Positions 50-44,807 of a DNA stretch of 51,462 nucleotides are shown here, one piece after another. Under the pieces are notes generated by a model, which saw nothing but the letters and a program-made list of their open reading frames with translations, did no database searches and was not told the origin of the DNA. Numbering within the stretch: position 1 is the first letter of the stretch; each line of letters begins with the position of its first letter. The stretch is taken from the UHGV virus genome UHGV-0127437, one strand, 5' to 3'. The stretch is from a virus. Position numbers and translations under genes: made by a program.

Positions 50-1315
50 TCACTTCACACGCAAAAGGTCTTCATATCGAGTGGTGTATCGCGGTGAGAG
101 CATCTCCCGCTTCATCTGCCACTGCTGTTGTATGCCCTGTCCGGCGAAGTAGAGCGTACCTACGCCGTCTTTGGTGTTGAGATGATCCAGCACCTTCATC
201 AGTTTGTCGCTATTGCGCCGCGGCGCGTTATCATCAAAAAGGTTGAGTTGTGCCACCCCCTGGCTGAAGAAGTCGCCGAGCATAACGCCTGCCTTCTGGT
301 AACGGCGTCCATCTTTCCAGACAGCATCCAGGCATCGCGTGGCCGCGCCGATAATGTCCCGGCTGTCCTGCGTCGGGGTCAGAAGCTTCACAGAGGCGCT
401 GTTGCCGTAATACGGTTCGTTCAGTGCAAACGGGCTTGTCTTCACGAACGCGGAGATAAACCGGCAATATTGATGCTCGCCGCGCAGCTTCTCCGCCGCC
501 CGGCTGGCGTAACTGAAAATCGCCTGACGCATCTCTTCGTAATCAGTGATACGACCACTGAAGGAGCGTGAGCAGACGATTTCCTGCTTTACTGGTGCAA
601 ACTCTTCCAGTTCCAGACACGGCTCACCACGCAGCTCGCGTACCGTTCTTTCGAGCACAACATTGAAATGCTTCTTGATAAACCGGATATCTGTGTCAGC
701 CAGGTCAAGAGCAGTTTCGATGCCCATCCCCTCCAGCTTTTTAGAGATGCGTCGCCCTATACCCCACACCTCGCCAACTGGCAGCGCAGCTAACAGTTTA
801 CGCTGCCGGCCCACGTTCGATAAATCAACAACACCACCAGTCTGTCGTTGCCACTTCTTTGCCGCATAGTTAGCCAGTTTCGCGAGGGTTTTTGTCTGCG
901 CAATACCGACACCGACGGTGAGATGTGTACGCTGTAATACTGTAGTGCGGATCTCCCGGCCAAATTCAGTAAGATCACGGCAGTTTCGCACGCCAGTCAT
1001 GTCACAAAATGCCTCGTCTATGCTGTAAATTTCGACGCGGGGACTAATTTCTTCCAGCGTTGTCATTACGCGATTCGACATATCAGCGTAAAGCTCATAG
1101 TTACTGGAGAACGCGACGATGCCGTGACGGCGAAAAGTCTCTTTTTGTTTGAAATAGGGCTCCCCCATTTTAACAAAGGACTTCGCTGCTGCTGAACGGG
1201 CAATAACACAGCCATCATTGTTAGAGAGAACGACAACCGGCCTTCCTTTTAGGTCTGGCCTGAACACCGTTTCACAACTCGCATAGAAGCTGTTCACGTC
1301 TACGAGTGCAAACAT
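50..1315 (-). CDS. umuC: Error-prone DNA polymerase V catalytic subunit UmuC (Y-family polymerase)
   Basis: 421-aa ORF; N-terminus MFALVDVNSFYASCETVFRPDL...VVVLSNNDGCVIARS and overall colinear similarity to enterobacterial UmuC as recalled; ATG start; directly downstream of umuD in same operon. Confidence 0.9.
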   Translation of the reverse strand: MFALVDVNSFYASCETVFRPDLKGRPVVVLSNNDGCVIARSAAAKSFVKMGEPYFKQKETFRRHGIVAFSSNYELYADMSNRVMTTLEEISPRVEIYSIDEAFCDMTGVRNCRDLTEFGREIRTTVLQRTHLTVGVGIAQTKTLAKLANYAAKKWQRQTGGVVDLSNVGRQRKLLAALPVGEVWGIGRRISKKLEGMGIETALDLADTDIRFIKKHFNVVLERTVRELRGEPCLELEEFAPVKQEIVCSRSFSGRITDYEEMRQAIFSYASRAAEKLRGEHQYCRFISAFVKTSPFALNEPYYGNSASVKLLTPTQDSRDIIGAATRCLDAVWKDGRRYQKAGVMLGDFFSQGVAQLNLFDDNAPRRNSDKLMKVLDHLNTKDGVGTLYFAGQGIQQQWQMKREMLSPRYTTRYEDLLRVK

Positions 1316-1317
1316 AC

Positions 1318-1734
1318 TCAGCCAGCAGACTTCACGATGTAAGTTACGACGCCGAAAACCTCCAGATTGTCTTCACTTCCAATCATGATTGGTTTATACA
1401 CAGAGTTTTCAGGCTTGAGCATGACAGCAGGATGCAGCAACAGGCGCTTAACTGTGAACTCACCGTCGACCGCTGCAATGACAATGTCCCCATGCCCTGC
1501 TTTTCGTGAACTGTCGACTACCAACAAATCGCCTTCGCCGATTCCGGCATCACGCATAGAATCTCCTGTGGCCTTCACGAAATACGTCGCGCTTGGGTGC
1601 CTCACCAGCAATTCGTTAAGGTCTATACGCGACTCAACATAGTCCTGAGCAGGGGAAGGAAACCCGCATTGCACAAGGTCACTAAACATTGGGAGCGCCA
1701 CATGGCGTAGATCTGTAGGCGTGAAAAACTGCAT
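1318..1734 (-). CDS. umuD: UmuD, LexA-like S24 self-cleaving peptidase subunit of Pol V
   Basis: ORF with [12 protein letters not shown]...[12 protein letters not shown]...GDLLVVDS motifs typical of UmuD/LexA C-terminal domain; track start at 1743 is GTG, in-frame ATG at 1734 with AAGGTGA RBS preferred; stop overlaps/abuts umuC. Confidence 0.85.
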
Positions 1735-1752
1735 GATAATCACCTTAATTGA

Positions 1753-7607: not shown

Positions 7608-10325
7608 TCATCCTACATTGCCGGGATAAGTGGCATTGTCGTAATCGTAGAAGCTGGGTTTATACTGCTTCGCCGTTACCTGGCATGTGCCATCAGATTG
7701 AGGCGCGATCTCAGAGATAATGGCGTTATAGCCAACGCGCGAAGAGTCGCAAAAAATAAGGCGTGGTGGCTCAATAGCCGGATCATTGAGGACGATTTCA
7801 GCAAATTCATTCAGGTATCGCACTGTCACCTGATAATCATCAGCCCTGATTGCCGTAAGAAGAGATGATGCGGTCCCGTCCTGAAATCGGATGATCACTC
7901 GCGGGTTTTCATAACTCCAATCCAGTGGCTCGGTTACCGTGAATGTTGTCAGCGCATTTTCGGTTGTCATTTCATCAACCAGACAGGAAATAGTTTTATT
8001 GCCAGGAATATCGTCTGTCAGCACTATGCGGTCGCCGACGTTATAGCAAAGGGCGTCCAGTTCGGTTAATGTCGTATGCGTCAGCCGTTGCTGTAGGTAC
8101 TTAATCAGCCGCCGCATGCCGATCTGATATGCCCGGTCCCGGTCGAGCACACCGTCAAGCGTATAGTCTTCGATTTTTACGGGCGTTGGATTTCCCGGTA
8201 TCCGGCACTGTACCGTTTCCTCCGCCCAGGTGGTGCCGTTGATATACGTAACGTCCACGCCGTCATAGTCGTCGTAAGACGGAGCCACGAACGCGGTTTG
8301 CAAGTCTTCTGTCATCTCATGTGGACTGATAACCCCCGACCAGGGCTTAACGCCTTCGCGCGCAACCGAGGCAAGCCCGTCTGCCAGCAGAAAATAGCTT
8401 TTCCCGGCGTTGGCGATCTTCTGCAAAACCTCCAGCGCAGATGTGCTGTCAGTCGTCTCGAAGTCGAAAAACTCATTGTCAGGCGTCCAGTACGCACTTT
8501 CCAGCGCATCAATGGCGTCGGTGTCCATATCCAGCCCCAGCGAGTTACCAACATAGTACAGCGCGCCGGAGATGCTGCGCGCCGCGCCAGTGTCGTAAAT
8601 CCTTGTAGCTACCACGTTCACCCGGCGATCGGACTGCGCCGCCAGCTTACCGCCGGTTTCCACCGTGACGCCCATCGTCGTTACGCCAGCGTACGATGAC
8701 GGCCTGGTCAGCAGGCGGCCACGCAATGATTGCCAGTACATATTATCTCGGCTGTTATCCTGCCCCTGCTCGTTAGTGCGCCGACACCGCACTTCAACAA
8801 GACCGGGAGAATTCAGCGTGATGCGCTCAGTGAAACCAAGGCCATTAATATTTTTTGTGTTATACGAACCGGTTTTGCTCATCCATCCCGAACCAGAACC
8901 ATAAACGCGGTACTGAACTTCCCAGCGAACCGTTCTGTTTTGTTTTCTCCCTTTTTTGTCGTACCCGCAAATGCCATTCGGGAAGAAGAAATTCACTTCA
9001 AACATGTCGATGGTTTCATTATCCGGGCATGCCAGAAATGGCCCCATCCAGGAGTCATTCTGGTTAACGCCAGATGCCTCAAAATCAAGTACGGTACGCG
9101 CCACGAAACCCGGCCATGTGTTATCGACAACACCGTCAATCAAGCGTTGAAGAGTCACACTGGTGCCGTCCACGTCGAAAATTTTGAACTGATATCCAGC
9201 GTGAGAAACAGAAAGCCTGATATACCCCTCAGGAATACCCGTAAAAGGCGCGCCGGTTTCATTCTCATAAGCCAGCGTTATAGACGCGGTGACTTCCTCT
9301 TCTTCCTCTGTCGCGTCTGCATGCGGCGTATACGAAGCGATAAACAGGCTATAGTCGACGCTGTTGTACCAGAGCGTTACCGGCATTCCGACGTAAGGGG
9401 CGATTTCCGCCAGATTGTCACTGGTAATACGGCTGTATGCGCCATCGTTGGTAACAACAAACTGATCGGGTACGATTAGCTCAACCGTCGCACCAGCAAC
9501 CCAGGAATCAGGCAGCTCGTTTGTTGCAGTATCGTCGTCAGCGCTTAATCCGTTAAATGTGATTGTACTTCCCGACACCGTCAGCGACTGCGCCACAACA
9601 TCATCCGTATCCGGCGCGGTCTGGGCCATATCCAGCCCGGCACCCGATGACGTCCCGCCAACCTCGGTAGAGTTAAACCAGTTTTCGCTACGGCGATCAC
9701 CAGCCACATTCTGACCTGGCTGAAAAACGGTGTACGTGAAACCATCACCAAGCGATGAAACTGGTGTGGCACCAACACGCATATCCCCTTCGCCGAATGA
9801 AAATTGTCCGAATCCCAGAGCAACGAACATTTCAACGGTCATCACTGTCGGATCGTCCGGGCGGAACCGGGTTACCGGCTGCACTACATAATCGGGGTAA
9901 ATTCGGCGGCGTCCGAACAGCTCGCGGATTGGATCGCCCAGTTTTGCACGATTCGCTTTTGCCGGGTTAACGTCCAGTGAATCGCCTGTCGACGAAGAAA
10001 AACCACCGGGATCTGATGCGCCAGGCGCAAAGAACAGCGCATAAGCCACAGATGCGACCGAAACAGCAACGGCAATCCACGCCAGCGCAACGGCGCCATG
10101 AGGAACCGGATAAATGCGCACATCACTTGTCGGGCTGATCGCATAATCGAACCATGCCGCAGCCGGGATATTCACGCCGTCCACTTCAATGGCGATCGGA
10201 TGTTTCATATCAGCGCGATAATTATCAACGTTCCGCGTCATCCACTGATGGATCGTGATAGCACTATGTTCATGCGTTTCCAGCGGTTCGCCAGGTAATC
10301 GGGAAGGATAAATTCTAATGGTCAC
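7608..10325 (-). CDS. Tail tip / central tail fiber protein (lambda gpJ-like host specificity protein)
   Basis: 905-aa ORF following NlpC/P60 tail gene in M-L-K-J-like order; GTG start overlapping upstream stop (GTGA). Confidence 0.6.
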   Translation of the reverse strand: MTIRIYPSRLPGEPLETHEHSAITIHQWMTRNVDNYRADMKHPIAIEVDGVNIPAAAWFDYAISPTSDVRIYPVPHGAVALAWIAVAVSVASVAYALFFAPGASDPGGFSSSTGDSLDVNPAKANRAKLGDPIRELFGRRRIYPDYVVQPVTRFRPDDPTVMTVEMFVALGFGQFSFGEGDMRVGATPVSSLGDGFTYTVFQPGQNVAGDRRSENWFNSTEVGGTSSGAGLDMAQTAPDTDDVVAQSLTVSGSTITFNGLSADDDTATNELPDSWVAGATVELIVPDQFVVTNDGAYSRITSDNLAEIAPYVGMPVTLWYNSVDYSLFIASYTPHADATEEEEEVTASITLAYENETGAPFTGIPEGYIRLSVSHAGYQFKIFDVDGTSVTLQRLIDGVVDNTWPGFVARTVLDFEASGVNQNDSWMGPFLACPDNETIDMFEVNFFFPNGICGYDKKGRKQNRTVRWEVQYRVYGSGSGWMSKTGSYNTKNINGLGFTERITLNSPGLVEVRCRRTNEQGQDNSRDNMYWQSLRGRLLTRPSSYAGVTTMGVTVETGGKLAAQSDRRVNVVATRIYDTGAARSISGALYYVGNSLGLDMDTDAIDALESAYWTPDNEFFDFETTDSTSALEVLQKIANAGKSYFLLADGLASVAREGVKPWSGVISPHEMTEDLQTAFVAPSYDDYDGVDVTYINGTTWAEETVQCRIPGNPTPVKIEDYTLDGVLDRDRAYQIGMRRLIKYLQQRLTHTTLTELDALCYNVGDRIVLTDDIPGNKTISCLVDEMTTENALTTFTVTEPLDWSYENPRVIIRFQDGTASSLLTAIRADDYQVTVRYLNEFAEIVLNDPAIEPPRLIFCDSSRVGYNAIISEIAPQSDGTCQVTAKQYKPSFYDYDNATYPGNVG

Positions 10326-28702: not shown

Positions 28703-29004
28703 TCACCAGCCTTAGTAAGCGCGTCGGCAACAACACTTACAGCCGCCGGACGCTCAGCAATGGGTTTATCACTGATTCCATCCAGGTAATCGCGGATCAT
28801 GGCTGTGCGCTTCTCGTCTTCTTTACGTTTACGACGGGCATCAATTCGGCCATTTACGTAAGAGATCAGAGAAATAAGCAGGCCGACAGCACCAAAGAAC
28901 ATGTAGACCATGTCCTGTGTGGTAAAACCTAATGCTGCCGCGAGGGTTCCAACCCACGCGAAAAACTGCGTGAAAATGTTCCCTGAGTGATCGTTCATTC
29001 TCAT
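28699..29004 (-). CDS. Holin (two-TM class, possibly pinholin partner of SAR endolysin)
   Basis: 101-aa ORF with two hydrophobic helices and charged C-terminus, immediately upstream of endolysin. Confidence 0.65.
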   Translation of the reverse strand: MRMNDHSGNIFTQFFAWVGTLAAALGFTTQDMVYMFFGAVGLLISLISYVNGRIDARRKRKEDEKRTAMIRDYLDGISDKPIAERPAAVSVVADALTKAGE

Positions 29005-29100
29005 GGTCTCTTACCTCGCGTTTTTCGGAGGCTGTGTGTAAGGGAAAGGCCGCCCGGTGGATTAACGACAAAACACAGAGGAATCGTTCCGAACGGCACA

Positions 29101-29124
29101 AATAAAAAACCCGCCAGAAGCGGG
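29101..29124 (-). terminator. Hairpin terminator upstream of lysis genes (candidate Q-antiterminated late terminator)
   Basis: Stem cccgc/gcggg with U-run on minus strand; located between the ORF downstream of Q and the holin start. Confidence 0.45.
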
Positions 29125-29192
29125 AATAGAAGATAAGCGCACGGCTTTAATCGCCCACAATGCGCGGGATAATTGTCCCAAGGTAGAGGGAT

Positions 29193-29513
29193 TCAGTTTT
29201 TTGCTACCCATTCTCGCCAGCGGGCCTCTCTAATCTCAGGGCTCAGTCGCTGATCTTCAAAATGGTTTGCCAAATTTATCGAATCTGGCAGCAATGCCCA
29301 GGCGACATAGAAATCATGTGGCTCAAACTCTCCACCAGCAAATTCGTATGCACCAACATGGTAAACCTCGCCGTCTTCTTCGAGTGCCAGCACCTGAGCA
29401 ATATGCCAACCATCACAGGGGTTAAGAAGGATAACCCAACGCCCATTAAATTCTTTGGTTGGTTTTTCACTTGCGGGTCTGAAATGAAGCTGTTCGGTAA
29501 TTGGTTGCGACAT
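29193..29513 (-). CDS. Hypothetical protein between Q and holin
   Basis: ORF with ATG at 29513 and GGAG RBS; no recognisable motif. Confidence 0.45.
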   Translation of the reverse strand: MSQPITEQLHFRPASEKPTKEFNGRWVILLNPCDGWHIAQVLALEEDGEVYHVGAYEFAGGEFEPHDFYVAWALLPDSINLANHFEDQRLSPEIREARWREWVAKN

Positions 29514-29617
29514 ACTGGCTCCAGAAACGACAAAGCCCCGCACGATGGCGAGGCTTTAAGTTCGTCGACAATCAAAGCTATGGCGACAATATCAGATTTA
29601 CATGAAATATAGCCGTT

Positions 29618-30301
29618 TTAATCTACTTTTGCAATACTTTGCTCACAATTTGTCGCTTTTTGCTGCGAACGTGTTTTGGTTAATGATAGTAATGATTCCC
29701 TGTCCAGTTCAGCAAACAGTCGGAGCATACCCAACCAGTGCGCTGTAAAGGTCTTGGACCAGTTTTTATCCTCTACCCCCACCAGCGCCGCGAGATCGGC
29801 ATATTGATACTGCTCACGCCCTGCCAGCGCTGATTTCATATCCTGCGCCGCCAGCCAGATAAGCTGCCGCAGACGCTCTATTGTCTTTTTCGCCACGCGC
29901 TTCCCCCCCATTTGCTTACTGAACTGCTCCCACGCCCAGCGAGTAATGATTACCTGGTGATCCCAGCATGTGCTTTCGCTGTAATTCCAGAGCAACCAGG
30001 CTTTTTGATGCTCGTCGAGTGACATTAGCGCCCGACGCCATGAAGCAGTGGAGTATTCGACCGGCTGCACCAGCGGGATATGCGATCCTTTGGCGTGTGA
30101 TTGTTTTCCGGGGATCGGAGGGTTGTTCAGCGTTATCAGTTTTCCCGTAACTTCATCGCGTACACGCAACCTCTTGCGGGGATAAGTATTCGTATCGAAC
30201 TGCGCGTTCTCCAGCCAGGCCATTAACTGTCCCTTTGTCGCTCCGCTCAGATCTACCGTGGCCGCAATCAGTTGCTGACGAATATAGGATAAATTTTTCA
30301 C
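29618..30301 (-). CDS. Late gene antiterminator (Q-like)
   Basis: 227-aa ORF directly upstream of lysis cassette and downstream of nin-like/rusA genes, the canonical Q position; GTG start with AGGGG RBS. Confidence 0.5.
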   Translation of the reverse strand: MKNLSYIRQQLIAATVDLSGATKGQLMAWLENAQFDTNTYPRKRLRVRDEVTGKLITLNNPPIPGKQSHAKGSHIPLVQPVEYSTASWRRALMSLDEHQKAWLLWNYSESTCWDHQVIITRWAWEQFSKQMGGKRVAKKTIERLRQLIWLAAQDMKSALAGREQYQYADLAALVGVEDKNWSKTFTAHWLGMLRLFAELDRESLLSLTKTRSQQKATNCEQSIAKVD

Positions 30302-31454: not shown

Positions 31455-31661
31455 TCACCCCCAGCCTTTTTGTCGGAAGGTTCTCGGCGTCCGCGCCGGA
31501 CGTTCGCACTCTTGTAATTTCGCGCTGACTGTCCAGGTCAGGAAATCAGGATTGAGGCTCTTTTTGGCTCTGACGCCGCGAGACTGATAATCGGCAATCA
31601 GGCGCTCTGCCTGCTCGGTGGTGCATTCCGTGTGGTGAAAATATGAATACTTCATCGCCAT
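31455..31661 (-). CDS. Hypothetical small nin-region protein
   Basis: ATG at 31661 overlapping upstream stop (ATGA); track start further upstream would overlap neighbouring gene. Confidence 0.4.
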   Translation of the reverse strand: MAMKYSYFHHTECTTEQAERLIADYQSRGVRAKKSLNPDFLTWTVSAKLQECERPARTPRTFRQKGWG

Positions 31662-32260
31662 CACCCCGCAAAGCTCATAAGCTGGGCGGCGGCGTTCTCG
31701 GCCTCTTCCCTGCTGTTGAAGGTACGGGACAAGATCCAGCGCCACAGGACATCGAGTGCGGCCTTATACAGGTGCTGGAATTCGGTTTCGTCCATACTGG
31801 CGAACGCGATGCTGCGAGGGTGTTTGCGGAGCGTGCCATCTGGTAACTGTATGGCGTCAAAGTGACCGGCCTCGACAGTTACCCAGGCGCGGTAAGCGTC
31901 AAAGGATTTGCACAGGCTTATGCCGTTCGTGATACGGCGACTGGCGATCTGCTCCAGATACTGCTCGGCAGCGTCCAGCAGAGCGCTTTCATTGCCGCCG
32001 TATGAGGCAAGGAATCTGGCATAACCGTTAACGAGTTTGCGTTCATTCGAAGAAATAGCGCCGCCGGTTGGTTCCCAGTATTCGAACCCGAGATTCAGGA
32101 GCGCAAAGAAACGGCGATGAAACGCAGGATTGCGTACAAGTTTAAAGTCGGCAACCAGAACGGAGCCGAGCTTGCATTTTGATTGCAGAAAATCACTGGT
32201 CTCCGGCGTCGCGGGGATCAGGATTCCTGTTGACTGCTTAATGAGTTGTAATTGCGCCAT
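31661..32260 (-). CDS. Hypothetical nin-region protein
   Basis: 199-aa ORF, ATG start. Confidence 0.5.
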   Translation of the reverse strand: MAQLQLIKQSTGILIPATPETSDFLQSKCKLGSVLVADFKLVRNPAFHRRFFALLNLGFEYWEPTGGAISSNERKLVNGYARFLASYGGNESALLDAAEQYLEQIASRRITNGISLCKSFDAYRAWVTVEAGHFDAIQLPDGTLRKHPRSIAFASMDETEFQHLYKAALDVLWRWILSRTFNSREEAENAAAQLMSFAG

Positions 32261-32297
32261 GGTTGTTCACTCCGTGGCGCAGCAGGTTAACGGCTGT

Positions 32298-32546
32298 TCA
32301 GACCGTTGATTTCATATTATCAGAAGGTGGCGTTACCCGGTAGCCGAGACGGCGAATAAATTGCATAAAGCCATTGGGAGTAAAGACTTCTTCATCATCC
32401 AGCAAAGGCCGCATAGAAACCATGCCATTGACGCGATAGATAAGATGCCTGCCCGACGAAGGAAAGCTAAACACCACGCAGCCGTCAGACCGTCTTACAA
32501 TGTCATACCAGTTATCTTCTGACGTTTGCAAAGCTGAATTACTCAC
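32298..32546 (-). CDS. Small protein downstream of dinI-like gene (candidate antirepressor)
   Basis: 82-aa ORF, GTG start with AAGGGAG RBS; same strand and 117 bp downstream of LexA-controlled dinI-like gene. Confidence 0.4.
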   Translation of the reverse strand: MSNSALQTSEDNWYDIVRRSDGCVVFSFPSSGRHLIYRVNGMVSMRPLLDDEEVFTPNGFMQFIRRLGYRVTPPSDNMKSTV

Positions 32547-32663
32547 ATTCTGTTCTCCCTTCGAGCGACATACAGACGCGGTTAAAAATTGTCGGCAGCA
32601 GCATCAAAGGGATACGCAAATTGCGGTATTCTGAAAAAATGCGCGCCAGCCCCAAGCGCAATG

Positions 32664-32897
32664 TTAGTAAAACCAGTCGTCGGCGCTTTCCCAGGTCTCC
32701 TGAAGAATCTCCTCAATGCGCTGCTTGTCCCCTTTTTCACCCCCCAGAATACTCAGGCCATCAGCCCCGGCGCGGCGAATTGTAAGTTTGACCCCTTCAT
32801 AGTTCTGGCTGAGCCTGCGTAACAGTTCGGCTTCTAATGCTGGCACTGCGCCATCAGGAAGTTTCTTTGTTCGATCAATAGTTAACTCAACTTTCAT
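32664..32897 (-). CDS. dinI: DinI-family protein (SOS-regulated RecA modulator homolog)
   Basis: ORF from ATG at 32897 (MKVELTIDRTKKLPDGAVPALEAELLRRL...KQRIEEILQETWESADDWFY), C-terminal DinI signature; GGAGG RBS; LexA box immediately upstream. Confidence 0.8.
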   Translation of the reverse strand: MKVELTIDRTKKLPDGAVPALEAELLRRLSQNYEGVKLTIRRAGADGLSILGGEKGDKQRIEEILQETWESADDWFY

Positions 32898-32915
32898 AGT
32901 GGCCTCCATTGCGTA

Positions 32916-32935
32916 TACTGTATTTTTATACAGTA
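32916..32935 (-). promoter_or_regulatory. LexA box upstream of prophage dinI-like gene
   Basis: tactgtatttttatacagta, perfect CTGT-N8-ACAG SOS box. Confidence 0.8.
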
Positions 32936-33004
32936 TACCTATAAAACGAAATGATCAACGTTTTAAGAGCACGAATTGTTAACCCATAGACACAAATTTC
33001 AGGC

Positions 33005-33030
33005 GTAAAAAAACCCGCCGAAGCGGGTTT
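33005..33030 (-). terminator. Rho-independent terminator
   Basis: Stem aaacccgc/gcgggttt with cgaa loop, U-run on minus strand; between upstream small ORFs and dinI promoter. Confidence 0.6.
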
Positions 33031-33173
33031 AATCATTAAGAGCATTTGCATCTGTGGCAGGTGAGGAGTTCATATTGTGCTCGCATTTAAGTCCCCTTAA
33101 ATGCGCAGAAGCCGCAATCGGGTGTTCAGTCCGACTGCGATTTAATTATTGCTGGTTGATTATTAAAAATCGA

Positions 33174-33826: not shown

Positions 33827-34393
33827 CTATATGCTCAAGATAATAATATCACGCCCCAATAACACACTTACAATTGCGGGCCAATGACTAAAAATGAATA
33901 CAACCAAAGAGATGAGACATATTACAAAGATAATAATGCATAACCACTTCATTGAAAGGTATAATAACTCACCTCTTTTCACTCGCTTCCACTCTTTTTT
34001 TAATACATTATGGCTTGCCATGGTGAAATCATCGATATCTTCTTTTAAATCTGAAGAAGGTGTTCCAGAAGATACTTTAACATTAAGTAATTTAATGGCA
34101 TCTCTTAGAACAGTTTCTTCTCTTGAAGGTTTACTATGATTGAGCCTGAGATAAATTTCTGATTGAACTACTGTGATCCCTTTGTATGCAGATTTTCGTT
34201 CTTCATCTGAAACTTCCGAGTCTCTTCTCAATACATCATAAAATCCAAGCAGGTTTGAAAGAGCTTGCCTTAATTCAGAGATCCATGCCTGACGGAACTC
34301 AGATGTTTTTAGTTCCTTAGTAATAACAAGACTAATCATCGCGCCAATTGCGGCTAAAAATGCTATAATTACAGCAATGACAGGTTCATTCAC
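33827..34393 (-). CDS. Hypothetical membrane protein (N- and C-terminal TM helices), low-GC cargo
   Basis: 188-aa AT-rich ORF; hydrophobic termini flanking a charged central domain. Confidence 0.5.
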   Translation of the reverse strand: MNEPVIAVIIAFLAAIGAMISLVITKELKTSEFRQAWISELRQALSNLLGFYDVLRRDSEVSDEERKSAYKGITVVQSEIYLRLNHSKPSREETVLRDAIKLLNVKVSSGTPSSDLKEDIDDFTMASHNVLKKEWKRVKRGELLYLSMKWLCIIIFVICLISLVVFIFSHWPAIVSVLLGRDIIILSI

Positions 34394-34554
34394 TTTTCTT
34401 ACCCCTAAAATAATTAGCCTAAAAGCTCCTGAAATCAGAATATCTAATCTTACTGGATATAAATTTAAAGATAGACTTTAAAGCCAAACCTAGTATGTTA
34501 GAATAACCTTTTAACAAGAAGTTTGTCGACATTTTAACGTAACCGAGAAGTAAA

Positions 34555-35136
34555 ATGAACGCTAACTCACAGCCAACGCCAGATCAAGAAATCAAGATCG
34601 AGGTCATCCGCTGGCATCAAAAACTCCAGGAAATCACCTACATCGAAGCTGGTCAACACATGCGTGCTTTGAACCAACTGATGTGGCAGATTCCAAGTCT
34701 GGTAATCGCCATTAATGGTGGGCTCTGGTATGCTGCTACACTAGTTAATGAAGCCTCACTTTGGATGATTTTTGCTTTTTTAACAGTTTTCGACCTGCTC
34801 ACTATTTGCACGCTTTTTCGACTTAGGGTTCTGATAGGAAAAAAAATAACCAAACAAAATGATATTGAAGAACTATCGAAAAATAGCATACTTCAAGACC
34901 TTAGTAATAAATCCGGCATAATAATCTCACCTACCCCAGCTCCTAAAAAAGAGAGCAAGTTCATTGTAGTTGGATGCTGGACCATATGCTTATTGCTCTG
35001 CGCTATTATTAATTTTCATGGCTCATTTAATCCGTCGATATTTTCAAAACCTAGCGAAAACAATAAGTCCGAACAAAACACAACTCACCTCATCTGTGTT
35101 TCTAAGACAGCACCCACAAATGGAGAAATAAAATGA
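34555..35136 (+). CDS. Hypothetical polytopic membrane protein, low-GC cargo
   Basis: 193-aa ORF, ATG start; at least three hydrophobic helices; stop overlaps downstream methyltransferase start. Confidence 0.5.
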   Translation: MNANSQPTPDQEIKIEVIRWHQKLQEITYIEAGQHMRALNQLMWQIPSLVIAINGGLWYAATLVNEASLWMIFAFLTVFDLLTICTLFRLRVLIGKKITKQNDIEELSKNSILQDLSNKSGIIISPTPAPKKESKFIVVGCWTICLLLCAIINFHGSFNPSIFSKPSENNKSEQNTTHLICVSKTAPTNGEIK

Positions 35137-35738
35137 CCACATGGAAATTTTATGATGACAATGCCTTACGTTTATTTAATGACTATCAATCCCTAAATTT
35201 TAAAGATATATTTTCTGACGTTGAATCCTACTTCCTTGCTTCCCGCGGAGATGCTCTGGACGTAGGTGCTGGTTCTGGAAGGGATTCTGCTGCTTTATTT
35301 AAAATGGGCTACAATGTAACAGCTGTAGAGCCAAGCGATAACATGCGAAATCTTGCGGCCGAAAATCATAAGCACTGTGATATTACTTGGGTCAATGATT
35401 CATTGCCTGAACTAAGAAAGATCACTCAATCACTAAAGACCTTTGACCTTATAATTGTTAGTGCAGTCTGGATGCACCTAAATGAAAACCAGCAGGAGAG
35501 GTCGTTATTTACTCTATTCAATCTTCTATCCGCCAATGGAGTTATGATCATTACATTGCGATTAGGGCCAGCCGAACCCGATAGACAAATCAGTGTGATT
35601 TACACAGAAGATTTAATTGCTCTTTCAAAAAAATTAGGGCTAACGGTTGAATATATTAGCCCTGTCAATACGGATAGTTTTAATAGACCATCCGTTACTT
35701 GGCAAAAAGTGGTTTTATCTAAAAAAACCACTTCATAG
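35133..35738 (+). CDS. Class I SAM-dependent methyltransferase (substrate unknown)
   Basis: 201-aa ORF with motif I DVGAGSGRDSAAL and downstream acidic/hydrophobic motifs of Rossmann-fold MTases; no DPPY/NPPY DNA-MTase motif seen. Confidence 0.65.
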   Translation: MTTWKFYDDNALRLFNDYQSLNFKDIFSDVESYFLASRGDALDVGAGSGRDSAALFKMGYNVTAVEPSDNMRNLAAENHKHCDITWVNDSLPELRKITQSLKTFDLIIVSAVWMHLNENQQERSLFTLFNLLSANGVMIITLRLGPAEPDRQISVIYTEDLIALSKKLGLTVEYISPVNTDSFNRPSVTWQKVVLSKKTTS

Positions 35739-35744
35739 ATGCCA

Positions 35745-36989
35745 TTACTCACAAAGCCCATAACGTGATGAACAGACCTCGGTATTCAGGCTTGATTTGA
35801 CCAAGTCGTAGACTTTCCCCCCGCGACCTGTTTTGGCCCACTCCACAACTTCATCAACACTTGGCGAGTTCAGGTTTGCGCGAGGTCCATAGAACCCAGA
35901 CCAATCAATATGCTGCACCTCAGGTTCTAACCCATAGAGCTGCACATTTCTACCAAGGGGCAGGTCAAACGACTTCATCCAGCGCTGGTTTATCTCGCCA
36001 ACACTCATCCAGTGAACCCAGCGAGACGTTAGACGAACCTTCAGCTCCCACTCTTTGTGCTTCTCAATATGCTCCGGCCAGCGCGAAAATGTCTCAGCAA
36101 TTTCTTCTTTGTTACACAGCACGCAATTCATACAACCGACACGTGAGGCTCCCTGCGTGTAAAGCGGGTTTGGCGATATCCCGAAGTATTTGTGGAGCGC
36201 GAATACATCTGTGGCCGTCCACTGGTGAATGGGAAGGAAGTTATACAAAAAATCCGGGTCACGCTTGTCAGTGGAGAAGCGCTCATAGCTGGCTCTCTTT
36301 GATGACTCATCTGCCCGTACACCAGACCACTGGACGACCACGTCGCCATCATCCAGCATTGGTTGCAGAGCTTTATCAAAGGCGATCTGAATTTTGAGCT
36401 CATCGGTACAGAATCGGTCGCGAAGCATCGGAAATTTACCATGCAACAGTGCGCAGTCTAGAAAGCTATTTCCGCTTGGATGCATAACAGACAGAGCAGC
36501 ATCCAGCGCAGTTTCGAATTCAATTCCCCAACGCTCAGCAGTACGCAGCCAGGCCTGCCCAAACGCTGTATCGGAGCGGCCGAGTGAAGGCATAACAACA
36601 CCCCTATATGCCCCCATACGAATGGCCTGACGCTTAACCCAGTTCTTCTGGATGTATCCTCGGCGGCGTTCAAAATCAACCTCGGTATATATCCGCTTAA
36701 CAACCTGAACTGGCGCGCATCCAATCTGTTCATGGATAGTTTTTGCGAACTGTACGGTAAGCTCGTGTTCATTATCTGTATCAGCCATAACAGCCTGAAC
36801 TCTACCGCCAAACAATGCATGGGCAACTGCCAGAGTGGCCGTGCTGTCCTTTCCTGCTGAATAATTGACGACGATTTTGTGATCATCAGGGATGCGGAAT
36901 TCAGTGAGGTAGCGATTATAGGCCAATCCAATTTCGCGAATTTTTTCGCTGATGTCGGTCGGTGCAATAATCATTGCTGCGTTGCTCAT
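35745..36989 (-). CDS. Phosphoadenosine phosphosulfate (PAPS) reductase-family PP-loop protein (IbrA-like phage protein)
   Basis: 414-aa ORF with PP-loop motif NYSAGKDST and extended C-terminal domain; resembles phage/prophage PAPS reductase-like proteins as recalled. Confidence 0.7.
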   Translation of the reverse strand: MSNAAMIIAPTDISEKIREIGLAYNRYLTEFRIPDDHKIVVNYSAGKDSTATLAVAHALFGGRVQAVMADTDNEHELTVQFAKTIHEQIGCAPVQVVKRIYTEVDFERRRGYIQKNWVKRQAIRMGAYRGVVMPSLGRSDTAFGQAWLRTAERWGIEFETALDAALSVMHPSGNSFLDCALLHGKFPMLRDRFCTDELKIQIAFDKALQPMLDDGDVVVQWSGVRADESSKRASYERFSTDKRDPDFLYNFLPIHQWTATDVFALHKYFGISPNPLYTQGASRVGCMNCVLCNKEEIAETFSRWPEHIEKHKEWELKVRLTSRWVHWMSVGEINQRWMKSFDLPLGRNVQLYGLEPEVQHIDWSGFYGPRANLNSPSVDEVVEWAKTGRGGKVYDLVKSSLNTEVCSSRYGLCE

Positions 36990-40042: not shown

Positions 40043-40157
40043 AGCTATGCCTCCCTTGCCTGGTGTTTTGAAAAACTCTTTGTCATAATGACCTCGTGAT
40101 TTCGCCTGGAATTACACCGAAGGCCGTCTGTGTTGGCGCACAGCGGTCTTCACCCTT

Positions 40158-40421: not shown

Positions 40422-40964
40422 TCACATGACACCCGGCGCTATGGCCGCGATACCACTCAGAACCTGAACGACAGCATCACCCGGCAACATATTCAGCAGA
40501 TGCTCAATCCCTTCCCTGACCTCTTTCACCAGCTGATGCTTTGGCGCATTCAGCATTACGGCCTGTTTCGCCTCGCTGATTTCCTTCTCCATCGCTGCAA
40601 AACGCGTCATGAAACAATCCTGTCCGATAAGACGCCCACGAAATTCCATCGGCAAAACAGCCAGGATTGCAGGAGTCAGCTGGCGGATGTTTTCGCGCGC
40701 ATATCCGGTATCACTGTCCAGCCAGCGGAAAAGCTTCTGCCGCTTACGGCTCAAGTCATCAGGAAAATCCAACCCGGCGCCGCCCTGCCGTTCCCATTCT
40801 TCAACGATGATCCCGGCGACTACGTCCTGGTTGTCCAGCGATGCCGACCACGCACGAACGGCAGCACGAATCTGGTCATGCTTATCCGCCGGATCAGGCT
40901 GATTGCGATTTATCATCGTGGCCGGAGGAAACCCGGTATTTTGTTGAAATGAAATTGAATGCAC
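40422..40964 (-). CDS. YdaT-like protein at cII position (regulator/toxin-like family)
   Basis: 180-aa ORF immediately downstream of cro; segments EEWERQGG...LTPAILAVLPMEFRGRL resemble Rac prophage YdaT as recalled; GTG start with GAGGG RBS. Confidence 0.45.
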   Translation of the reverse strand: MHSISFQQNTGFPPATMINRNQPDPADKHDQIRAAVRAWSASLDNQDVVAGIIVEEWERQGGAGLDFPDDLSRKRQKLFRWLDSDTGYARENIRQLTPAILAVLPMEFRGRLIGQDCFMTRFAAMEKEISEAKQAVMLNAPKHQLVKEVREGIEHLLNMLPGDAVVQVLSGIAAIAPGVM

Positions 40965-40966
40965 GG

Positions 40967-41200
40967 TTACGCCCTCGCTTCCTGCGCCGGTAATCCATCC
41001 GTTGGGTTCGGATACAGATCAGGGCGCAATTCGTGAGGGGTAACACCGGTTATGCTGTGAATTTTTAATATGTAATCTGGCGGCACAATGCCTCTGTCGC
41101 GATGTTTCCAATGGCTAATTGACATACTGGTTACACCAAGTGCCATGCTTAACTTTCTCGCTGAACCAGCAGCCTTAATTGCTTTATCAAGTGCTGTCAT
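40967..41200 (-). CDS. Cro-like HTH transcriptional regulator
   Basis: 77-aa ORF divergent from cI-like gene; HTH segment ARKLSMALGVTSMSISHW; AGGAG RBS. Confidence 0.6.
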   Translation of the reverse strand: MTALDKAIKAAGSARKLSMALGVTSMSISHWKHRDRGIVPPDYILKIHSITGVTPHELRPDLYPNPTDGLPAQEARA

Positions 41201-41301
41201 TTTCTTCTCCTAACTATCAACGAAGAAAGTAAACCACAGATTTATATTTCAAGCAATATTCAATTTATTGAGTGTGTAAACTAACCATTTACAATGAGAG
41301 A

Positions 41302-41685
41302 ATGAGAAAAGAAGAACCCAACAAAGCATTGATAGCGCGACTCAATGAGGTCTATGCCAGAGGCATTACCAAAGCAGATATGGCGCGAATAGCCGGAGTC
41401 TCGCCTCAGGCGGTCAATAGCTGGTTTAAAAAAGGCGTTATTAGCAAAAAATCAGCACTGGCTATAGCCGATGCTGTTGGCGTTTCGATCGCCTGGCTAC
41501 TCGGGGAAGATGTCGGCGAGAAAGATGGTATGAAGCCCGACGAGCAGCGCCTGCTGGAACTCTATCGCCAGTTGCCGGAAGAAGAGCAGCAGAACATGTT
41601 GCGGATCGTGTCTCTGCGCCTTAAGGAACTCGACGAGCTGTACGCCAAGTACATGGGACGGCGGATTAAGGGTGATGCGGAATAA
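41302..41685 (+). CDS. CI-like prophage repressor, HTH (XRE family) without S24 peptidase domain
   Basis: 127-aa from ATG at 41302 (track GTG at 41272); HTH ITKADMARIAGVSPQAVNSWFK; too short to contain LexA-like autocleavage domain. Confidence 0.65.
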   Translation: MRKEEPNKALIARLNEVYARGITKADMARIAGVSPQAVNSWFKKGVISKKSALAIADAVGVSIAWLLGEDVGEKDGMKPDEQRLLELYRQLPEEEQQNMLRIVSLRLKELDELYAKYMGRRIKGDAE

Positions 41686-41777
41686 CTCCCCACGGAGAGC
41701 TTATGAGGCTGGGTATTGCACATAGGCCATACGAACCACCTCTGGGTAGAAAACTTAAATAAAATTTAATAGTGGGA

Positions 41778-42692
41778 ATGGTAATGGAAGCACCTTATCA
41801 ATTAGAATTCACTGAAAACATTTATTATTCAATAGGTAATAACCCCAGCATTAAAGAAATCATTGAGTCTCTTCAAGGCTGGGAAGCTATTATCAAACAA
41901 TCTAAAGGAGTCCTTGCAGAGCTAACTGGAAGTGATATCCTGGATATTGAAGTTAGGGTTCAAAAGTTAGAAGTCGGGAGCCTAACTGAAAAAATTCTTA
42001 TCAAGTTAGGTTTTGGCAACGAAGAGAATTTTGATAAATTTCTCGAAAATGCGCATGAAAGGTACATCGGAGAAGGAAAAATGCGTAGCGCCTTAGTTTG
42101 GACGGTTATAGCAGGTGTACTCGCCACGGGTATGTATTTAGCCGTCAAAAACATGGCACCCAATAATGCCTCCCACTTCGAAGCAAATAATAATATAATC
42201 ATTAACATAGGTGCTGGCGAAACTAACATTTCACCTGAAAGAATACAGTCGGTGCTCAATAGTACATTAGTTGATAAAAAAACCGCTGCCAAAGGTGCTG
42301 TCAAAATTTTATCTCCAGCGCGAAATGACGAAAATGCAACATTAATGATAGGTAGCGATAACACTTCCGTAACAATACCTTCAGATTTAATCTCTAAAAC
42401 ACCAACCGAGGTTAGTTTTGAAGCTGATACATATACTCGAGACCATTACGATGTTGACCTTGAGATAAGAGCTCTTGATCTCGACAATCCGACAAAGGGA
42501 TGGGCTGCCGTGATTCCTGGCTTAGTTGATCGAAGGGTAAAACTAGTTTTGGCACCCGGGATTAAACCAGAAGACCTATCCCATAAATTCGCCTTCCGCG
42601 CTGATGTAACCATTACTTATAAACTTACGTCATCTAAAGGCGAAGCATACAAGCCAACAGAAATATTTTTAAGCAAATTAATCGCGGAATGA
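41778..42692 (+). CDS. Hypothetical single-TM protein downstream of repressor (rexAB-position cargo; candidate exclusion/abortive-infection gene)
   Basis: ~305-aa AT-rich ORF co-oriented with cI, one central hydrophobic helix (LVWTVIAGVLATGMYLAV), followed by strong terminator. Confidence 0.5.
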   Translation: MVMEAPYQLEFTENIYYSIGNNPSIKEIIESLQGWEAIIKQSKGVLAELTGSDILDIEVRVQKLEVGSLTEKILIKLGFGNEENFDKFLENAHERYIGEGKMRSALVWTVIAGVLATGMYLAVKNMAPNNASHFEANNNIIINIGAGETNISPERIQSVLNSTLVDKKTAAKGAVKILSPARNDENATLMIGSDNTSVTIPSDLISKTPTEVSFEADTYTRDHYDVDLEIRALDLDNPTKGWAAVIPGLVDRRVKLVLAPGIKPEDLSHKFAFRADVTITYKLTSSKGEAYKPTEIFLSKLIAE

Positions 42693-43285: not shown

Positions 43286-43558
43286 CACTAACCCTCGGCA
43301 ATTGATGTTTTTGTGAGCATAACACACGCTCCCTCTCCCAACATATAAACCTAAAATTTACACCAAACATTAATTGAAAGTTGACACAACTATAAACCAG
43401 TGATTTAATCAATATCACAGCAACACGACCACCCAGGCAGGACGCCCACGAAGTAGCCGTCCGGGGCATACGAAGACCGGAATGAGGTGGATGAGTTAAC
43501 GCGCAGCAGGTATCAAACGTTCCGCCAGCCGGGCGACAACGGCAAGCAGAGGGTGAAA

Positions 43559-44680: not shown

Positions 44681-44807
44681 GCAAAAGCCCACACGAAGTG
44701 GGCCTGCCCGTCCGGCGTCACCGACCAAAGCGAACCGGACATTTCTACCTGGTAAAACCGAGGTGCCATTAAGGCGCCTCCATTCTACACGAATTGAGGA
44801 TAAAATA

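Follow-up and report, generated by a model that had tools for sequence, protein, structure and literature searches.

How can a prophage be induced by DNA damage when its repressor has no domain for self-cleavage? The question is raised by positions 32,298 to 32,935 of the UHGV virus genome UHGV-0127437, a stretch of 51,462 nucleotides (nt) that we call the window, where a LexA box, a dinI homolog and an open reading frame (ORF) of 82 amino acids (aa) stand in a row on the minus strand. An earlier note, made from the letters alone, had proposed for this interval the architecture of the Gifsy prophages of Salmonella, in which a LexA-controlled dinI–antirepressor operon is paired with a repressor of the non-cleavable type. 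The gene order, the orthology of the ORF and the family of the repressor all agree with such an architecture, and we consider it very probable that this locus serves a lambdoid, Gifsy-like prophage of Citrobacter koseri as its induction module, organized as a dinI–gfoA–irsA antirepressor switch.

The dinI–gfoA–irsA operon and its control region

The operon and its control elements, in the direction of transcription, are the following:

33007-33030, minus strand: intrinsic terminator 5' of the operon promoter, AAACCCGC-TTCG-GCGGGTTT and then a run of T
32932-32958, minus strand: putative sigma-70 promoter, with TTGATC (32958-32953), a 15-nt spacer and TATACT (32937-32932)
32916-32935, minus strand: LexA (SOS) box, TACTGTATTTTTATACAGTA on the plus strand and TACTGTATAAAAATACAGTA on the coding strand, covering the last 4 nt of the -10 hexamer
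32664-32897, minus strand: prophage dinI homolog, first gene of the operon, 77 aa; Pfam DinI; phrog_189, "RecA filament binding protein DinI"
32547-32663, minus strand: dinI–antirepressor spacer of 117 nt, opening with a weak terminator-like hairpin (32660-32642) and then a run of T
32298-32546, minus strand: GfoA/GfhA-type antirepressor gene, 82 aa, with a GTG start and the Shine-Dalgarno sequence AGGGAG 8 nt upstream
31661-32260, minus strand: irsA homolog, third gene of the operon, 199 aa; Pfam DUF1367 (E=1e-94)

In the published Gifsy operons, a LexA box is followed by dinI, by an antirepressor gene with a non-AUG start and by irsA (Lemire et al. 2011, PMC3121763). The window presents the same order (LexA box, dinI, GTG-start ORF, DUF1367 gene), outside the immunity region, and the ORF follows dinI on the same strand behind a good ribosome-binding site, as the earlier note had described. 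Its identity can be read from the oligonucleotides used in the Salmonella work: primer pp866 (GTAATTCAGCTTTGCAA), used to clone gfoA, matches the window at 17 of 17 positions (32526-32542), the recombineering arm le175 (ATGAGTAATTCAGCTTTGCAAAAG, which encodes MSNSALQK) at 22 of 24 (32546-32523) and the 3' arm le163 (which encodes …RRLGYRVTPPSDI) at 36 of 40 (32355-32316). The ends of the ORF encoded at the two arms read MSNSALQ(T/K) and RRLGYRVTPPSD. Using the gfoR and gfhR primer sequences of Lemire et al., we also pulled authentic Salmonella loci of both genes out of IMG/VR. Those of gfoR encode MKEKTHQIN…EKYMKGRIRTRED and fit the gfoR primers and arms at both ends, and those of gfhR encode MTKVKHH…(V)MSDNTL…AKYMSRRIKGEGA and fit le110, le111 and le103. 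All those extending far enough carry an 82-aa ORF with a TTG start, 94% identical to the window ORF. Because the primers and arms match and because of this identity to ORFs linked with gfoR and gfhR, the 82-aa protein, until now put forward as a candidate antirepressor, goes beyond a mere candidate and ranks by its sequence as an ortholog of GfoA/GfhA.

The 94% identity to GfoA extends over 82 aa, and T8K is the only difference from the 76-aa protein of strain 14028 among the residues known from primers. The start codons differ, GTG in the window and TTG for GfoA, and so do the ends: the strain-14028 protein stops at PPSDI, whereas the window ORF has a 7-residue C-terminal tail (NMKSTV), and most homologs extend likewise with NMKSTV or IILS. 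This tail is evidently variable and dispensable. The family comprises 37 cluster representatives with 51-94% identity and 15 invariant columns, found in Salmonella, Citrobacter, Enterobacter, Klebsiella, Raoultella and Lelliottia. The window protein itself is exactly ABV13015.1 / A8AHQ2_CITK8, which is annotated as hypothetical and present on >400 contigs. It falls into phrog_340 (E=1.4e-20), a family also holding Rem, the antirepressor of Escherichia coli DicA. A Pfam search with the ORF returned no family, and the PDB holds no sequence match to it; the single-chain AlphaFold2 model consists of four strands and one helix.

The SOS box upstream of dinI had been called perfect. The box is indeed present, with 8-bp arms that repeat each other perfectly in inverted orientation, but against the 20-nt consensus TACTGTATATATATACAGTA it scores 18 of 20 positions, the central AAAA being off consensus at two. 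Sites with at most three mismatches from the 20-mer occur twice in the window, where shuffled sequences lead one to expect 0.00. The second one, at 1753-1772 (coding strand TACTGTATATATAATCAGTA), lies 12 nt 5' of the start of the host umuD gene and constitutes an internal positive control of the scan, umuD being a classical SOS gene. Eleven related loci have a LexA box at the same position, among them the promoters of Gifsy-1 and Gifsy-2, which have been studied by experiment. A further site at 40128-40143, of the form CTGT-N8-ACAG, was not accepted as an SOS box, having a GC-rich centre (GTTGGCGC) and more than three mismatches to the 20-mer consensus. The two matches to this loose motif are not rare, since such a number was reached in 8 of 100 shuffles.

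We assign the putative promoter because its layout is conserved with the Gifsy promoters: TTGAxx–N15–TATACT is kept in Gifsy-1, Gifsy-2, mEp237, SEN34 and ST846phi9.2. The terminator upstream of it is strong (-14.3 kcal/mol, z = -3.8, with none of 200 shuffles as stable) and probably keeps early-right transcription from running into the operon. The first gene is a dinI homolog just 3' of the box, as previously proposed, with a Pfam DinI match at E=1.4e-26 and 93 bits against a gathering cut-off of 24.2. Its start is likely the ATG at 32897, 5 nt past GGAGG, which gives 77 aa, in preference to the upstream ATG at 32909. The third gene is 88% identical to irsA of Gifsy-1 and Gifsy-2 (STM2620/STM1020).

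From dinI to the ORF runs a 117-nt spacer that is almost invariant in mEp237, SEN34, the Gifsy-1(14028)-type loci and Gifsy-2, although the gfoA and gftA genes that follow it cannot be aligned with each other; it is absent in SPN3UB and pAEv1818. The hairpin after dinI was considered as a conserved terminator and rejected, its stability being no better than that of shuffles (z=-0.24) and the covariation support from RNAalifold essentially nil. The spacer may be a leaky terminator, an attenuator or a recombination joint.

The repressor and the immunity region

The antirepressor operon lies about 8 kb from the immunity region, as in the Gifsy prophages. The regulatory elements found there are:

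41302-41685, plus strand: short prophage repressor of the GfhR/GfoR/DicA class, 127 aa, with an N-terminal helix-turn-helix (HTH) and a conserved C-terminal helical segment (…DEQRLLELYRQLPEEEQQNMLRIVSLRLKELDELYAKYM…)
40967-41200, minus strand: Cro-like regulator of the YdaS family, 77 aa, divergent to the repressor; Pfam YdaS_toxin (E=4e-14); phrog_35
40422-40964, minus strand: regulator at the cII position, YdaT family, 180 aa; Pfam YdaT_toxin (E=4e-48)
41229-41245 and 41276-41292 (between repressor and cro) and 43345-43361 (possible left operator, OL), no strand assigned: candidate operators, inverted repeats GTAAA-N7-TTTAC/T

The repressor had been described as a protein of about 127 aa with an HTH only, and Pfam bears this out: its matches are HTH_3 and Phage_CI_repr, and Peptidase_S24 is absent at E≤0.01. 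The roughly 55 residues past the HTH align to the C-terminal segment of GfoR and GfhR, unlike the self-cleaving class of lambda CI and LexA, which has a Peptidase_S24 domain at the C-terminus with an Ala-Gly cleavage site and a Ser/Lys dyad. The sequence identity of the repressor amounts to 76% with GfhR (over 120 residues), 57% with GfoR and 25% with DicA (E=5e-10), and the protein falls inside the sequence span of GfoR and GfhR. Both of these are inactivated by GfoA, though they are heteroimmune (PMC3121763). With them the window protein shares the design of a short HTH repressor carrying LLELYRQLP…LRLKELD…YxKYM in its C-terminal segment.

The alignment of 11 family members separates an HTH half (residues 1-69) from the C-terminal segment (residues 70-122). 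Among close relatives, identity to the window repressor amounts to 51-81% in the HTH half and 70-98% in the C-terminal segment, whose core motif LLE(L/I)…QLP..EQ……RL(K/Q)E(L/I)D is kept even by SPN3UB and by the Aeromonas phage pAEv1818. We infer that this segment may form the surface for dimerisation and/or for contact with the antirepressor, which would touch it rather than the variable HTH.

Matches to GTAAA-N7-TTTAC with at most one mismatch number seven in the window against 1.5 expected, three of the seven being in two regulatory intergenic regions; these repeats are candidate operators of the repressor, and the copy at 43345-43361 is close to a possible PL region. The O and P replication genes come after the YdaS-type Cro and the YdaT-type gene at the cII position. 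On the other side, directly 3' of the repressor, a 306-aa ORF (41772-42692, plus strand) stands where rexAB-like genes for lysogeny or exclusion are found and has no Pfam match. The window carries a single repressor copy, whereas mEp237 (32154-33033) and SEN34 (28897-29709) each carry two tandem paralogs of GfhR/GfoR type. Of the mEp237 pair, gp39 has an identity of 72% to the window repressor and gp38, whose HTH half is GfoR-like, one of 59%.

Proposed induction by antirepressor and competing explanations

By analogy with the experiments in Salmonella, the switch would operate as follows. In the lysogen, host LexA bound to the box over the -10 region would keep the dinI–gfoA–irsA operon silent, and the strong upstream terminator would stop read-through from the early-right transcript. 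DNA damage would activate RecA, LexA would cleave itself and the operon would be transcribed. The 82-aa GfoA-type antirepressor would then build up in an SOS-dependent manner and bind the 127-aa HTH repressor stoichiometrically, in an A2B2 complex if the analogy with GfoR–GfoA holds. The repressor would dissociate from its operators between repressor and cro, and probably also from the OL-like site near 43350, and lytic transcription would start without any cleavage of the repressor.

The closest known system is the GfoA/GfhA–GfoR/GfhR pair of the Salmonella Gifsy prophages, with which the locus shares the promoter-overlapping LexA box and the succession of dinI, non-AUG antirepressor gene and irsA. 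The C. koseri module differs from this experimentally worked-out system in its host, in its integration next to phoP and in the HTH half of its repressor, so that its immunity specificity is presumably different. The GftA–GtgR system (Gifsy-2 and the Gifsy-1 of strain LT2) has the same operon position, a LexA-box and promoter layout and a dinI–antirepressor spacer that are nearly identical, and the mechanism proposed here, but GftA is remote in sequence (PHROG 4847, against 340 for the window ORF). BLASTP between the ORF and GftA (LT2 STM2621.1n) was not significant, and GtgR was not among the tblastn hits (E≤1e-3) of the window repressor.

Two other comparisons are more distant. The Rem–DicA pair of the E. 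coli cryptic prophage Qin resembles the window pair in that Rem shares phrog_340 with the ORF and DicA shares with the window repressor a short HTH and the C-terminal LLEL…LPE.EQ architecture. Rem is a proven antirepressor of DicA and derepresses a DicA-controlled promoter (PMC10448788). In contrast with the window ORF, rem has no known inducing signal and no reported operon with dinI and a LexA box; when the GfoA alignment was compared directly with Rem at the profile level, no significant relation emerged. In coliphage 186 and in N15, LexA represses the antirepressor genes tum and antC, whose products bind non-cleavable repressors (PMC3121763), a scheme to which the window module would correspond. 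Tum differs by carrying its DinI-like part fused C-terminal of the antirepressor, whereas here dinI is a separate upstream gene.

Several observations weigh against the antirepressor switch. The window repressor is identical to neither of the validated targets, and its HTH half has diverged to about 50-65% identity with relatives, so specificity could have drifted. Cross-reaction is limited in this family, as GfoA is inactive on GtgR (Lemire et al., PMC3121763). The operon promoter was not called by a sigma-70 consensus scan allowing spacers of 16-18 nt, because its own spacer has the unusual length of 15 nt. The AlphaFold2 model of the 82-aa protein is of moderate confidence (predicted local distance difference test score, pLDDT, of 75) and has no structural neighbour in the PDB, which leaves the binding mode uncorroborated. 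Finally, the relation between GfoA and GftA is weakly detectable: hhalign of the family alignment against GftA gave a probability of 48% (E=1.9e-4), in agreement with Lemire et al., who called GftA "more distantly related" to GfoA (PMC3121763).

How well antirepressor and repressor stay together was examined in a collection of 50,697 phage records: homologs of the ORF occur in 17 of them (13 distinct phages) and homologs of the repressor in 38. Both occur in 11 of the 13 ORF-bearing phages: mEp237, SEN34, SW-37, ST974-OXA48phi18.2, ST846-OXA48phi9.2, PHB10, Chris1, Kp4865-4, SPN3UB, FSL SP-016 and pAEv1818. The identities to the window proteins range widely, antirepressor and repressor being 98% and 72% identical in mEp237 and 36% and 30% in the Aeromonas phage pAEv1818. 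The order LexA box, dinI, ORF, DUF1367 was found in every fetched locus. The GfoA-type ORF of SW-37 (7613-7857) aligns as two pieces in different frames, which points to a frameshifted pseudogene or a sequencing error.

This co-occurrence bears on the explanation that best survives beside the switch, namely that the antirepressor no longer fits its own repressor and is either a trans-acting inducer of other resident prophages or a relic of module shuffling, the prophage being induced otherwise or never. Mismatches of this kind are documented, since GtgR of Gifsy-2 ignores GfoA and FsoA of Fels-1 acts on a foreign repressor (PMC3121763), and the identities of the two proteins are loosely coupled: the repressor is 85% and the antirepressor 67% identical to the window proteins in PHB10, against 57% and 94% in the GfoR loci. 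However, besides the joint presence of the two gene families, the window repressor shares 76% identity with GfhR, a validated target of GfoA/GfhA, and its C-terminal segment is 85-98% identical in the phages whose antirepressors are at least 92% identical. We regard a mismatch as unlikely.

Less likely still is that the target of the small ORF is the SOS response itself, which it would modulate, for example, with DinI through RecA or LexA, and not the phage repressor. The idea draws on the co-transcription of the ORF with dinI and on Tum of phage 186, which joins an antirepressor half to a DinI-like half (PMC3121763). Against it, a GfoA 94-96% identical to the window protein induced Gifsy-1 and Gifsy-3 when expressed ectopically alone and was pulled down with GfoR, and deletions of dinI and irsA had no effect on induction (PMC3121763).

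That the ORF would be untranslated and the dinI–irsA interval would act as RNA (a small RNA or an attenuator) could be suggested by the unusual conservation of the spacer before the ORF and by the terminator-like hairpin after dinI, but this is hardly credible, since the protein is conserved down to 51% identity with its 15 invariant residues where the DNA is too diverged for a near-identity search, a frameshift in gftA abolished activity (PMC3121763) and no Rfam family was found within 31600-33100.

Range of the module, host and neighbouring genes

If the antirepressor switch operates as proposed, its reach may exceed a single prophage. [quoted passage not shown] The heteroimmune repressors it would serve are 51-64% identical to the window repressor in the HTH half and 70-98% in the C-terminal segment. 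A tentative reading, which we hold to be somewhat improbable as a whole, is that this nearly invariant antirepressor docks on the conserved C-terminal segment and is a pan-family inducer acting across genera, and that its dose might be set by the 117-nt spacer as a leaky terminator or attenuator. The presence of a near-identical antirepressor in prophages of several enterobacterial genera bears on the cross-induction of prophages and on their induction by antibiotics that trigger the SOS response.

The locus brings no new principle: by its sequence it is a further ortholog of the switch known from the Salmonella Gifsy prophages. The module had been predicted to be widespread, Citrobacter included, and the dinI–irsA region had already been noted as conserved in Citrobacter prophages (Lemire et al. 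2011, PMC3121763). The gain is that the hypothetical protein ABV13015.1 / A8AHQ2_CITK8 can now be named a GfoA-type antirepressor and that the induction mechanism assigned to the C. koseri prophage is a testable one.

The remaining features that place the prophage in its host and relate it to Gifsy are:

1318-1743, minus strand: host umuD, a few kb from the prophage end
50-1315, minus strand: host umuC
44682-44770, minus strand: isrB, Rfam gathering-threshold match of 99.9 bits
29532-29602, minus strand: isrJ, Rfam gathering-threshold match of 69 bits

The flanks of the window encode umuDC and phoP, and the prophage has an integrase and a recE-like gene. Because of these flanks, and because C. 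koseri proteins match the repressor at 100% identity and one matches the ORF exactly as well, the sequence identifies the window as a C. koseri prophage integrated beside phoP. An E. coli origin was considered and rejected, the best megablast matches to E. coli genomes being only ~86% identical. The prophage resembles Gifsy also by its isrB and isrJ, which in Salmonella are "island-encoded" Hfq-binding small RNAs mapping to Gifsy prophages.

A predicted membrane protein of 188 aa (33827-34393, minus strand) lies in the interval from the replication genes to the dinI operon. It is followed by a gene pair on the plus strand (34555-35738) that includes an S-adenosylmethionine (SAM)-methyltransferase-like protein, and by a 414-aa protein similar to 3'-phosphoadenosine-5'-phosphosulfate (PAPS) reductase and DndC (35745-36989, minus strand). 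This cluster, at 33827-36989, may consist of moron or DNA-modification genes.
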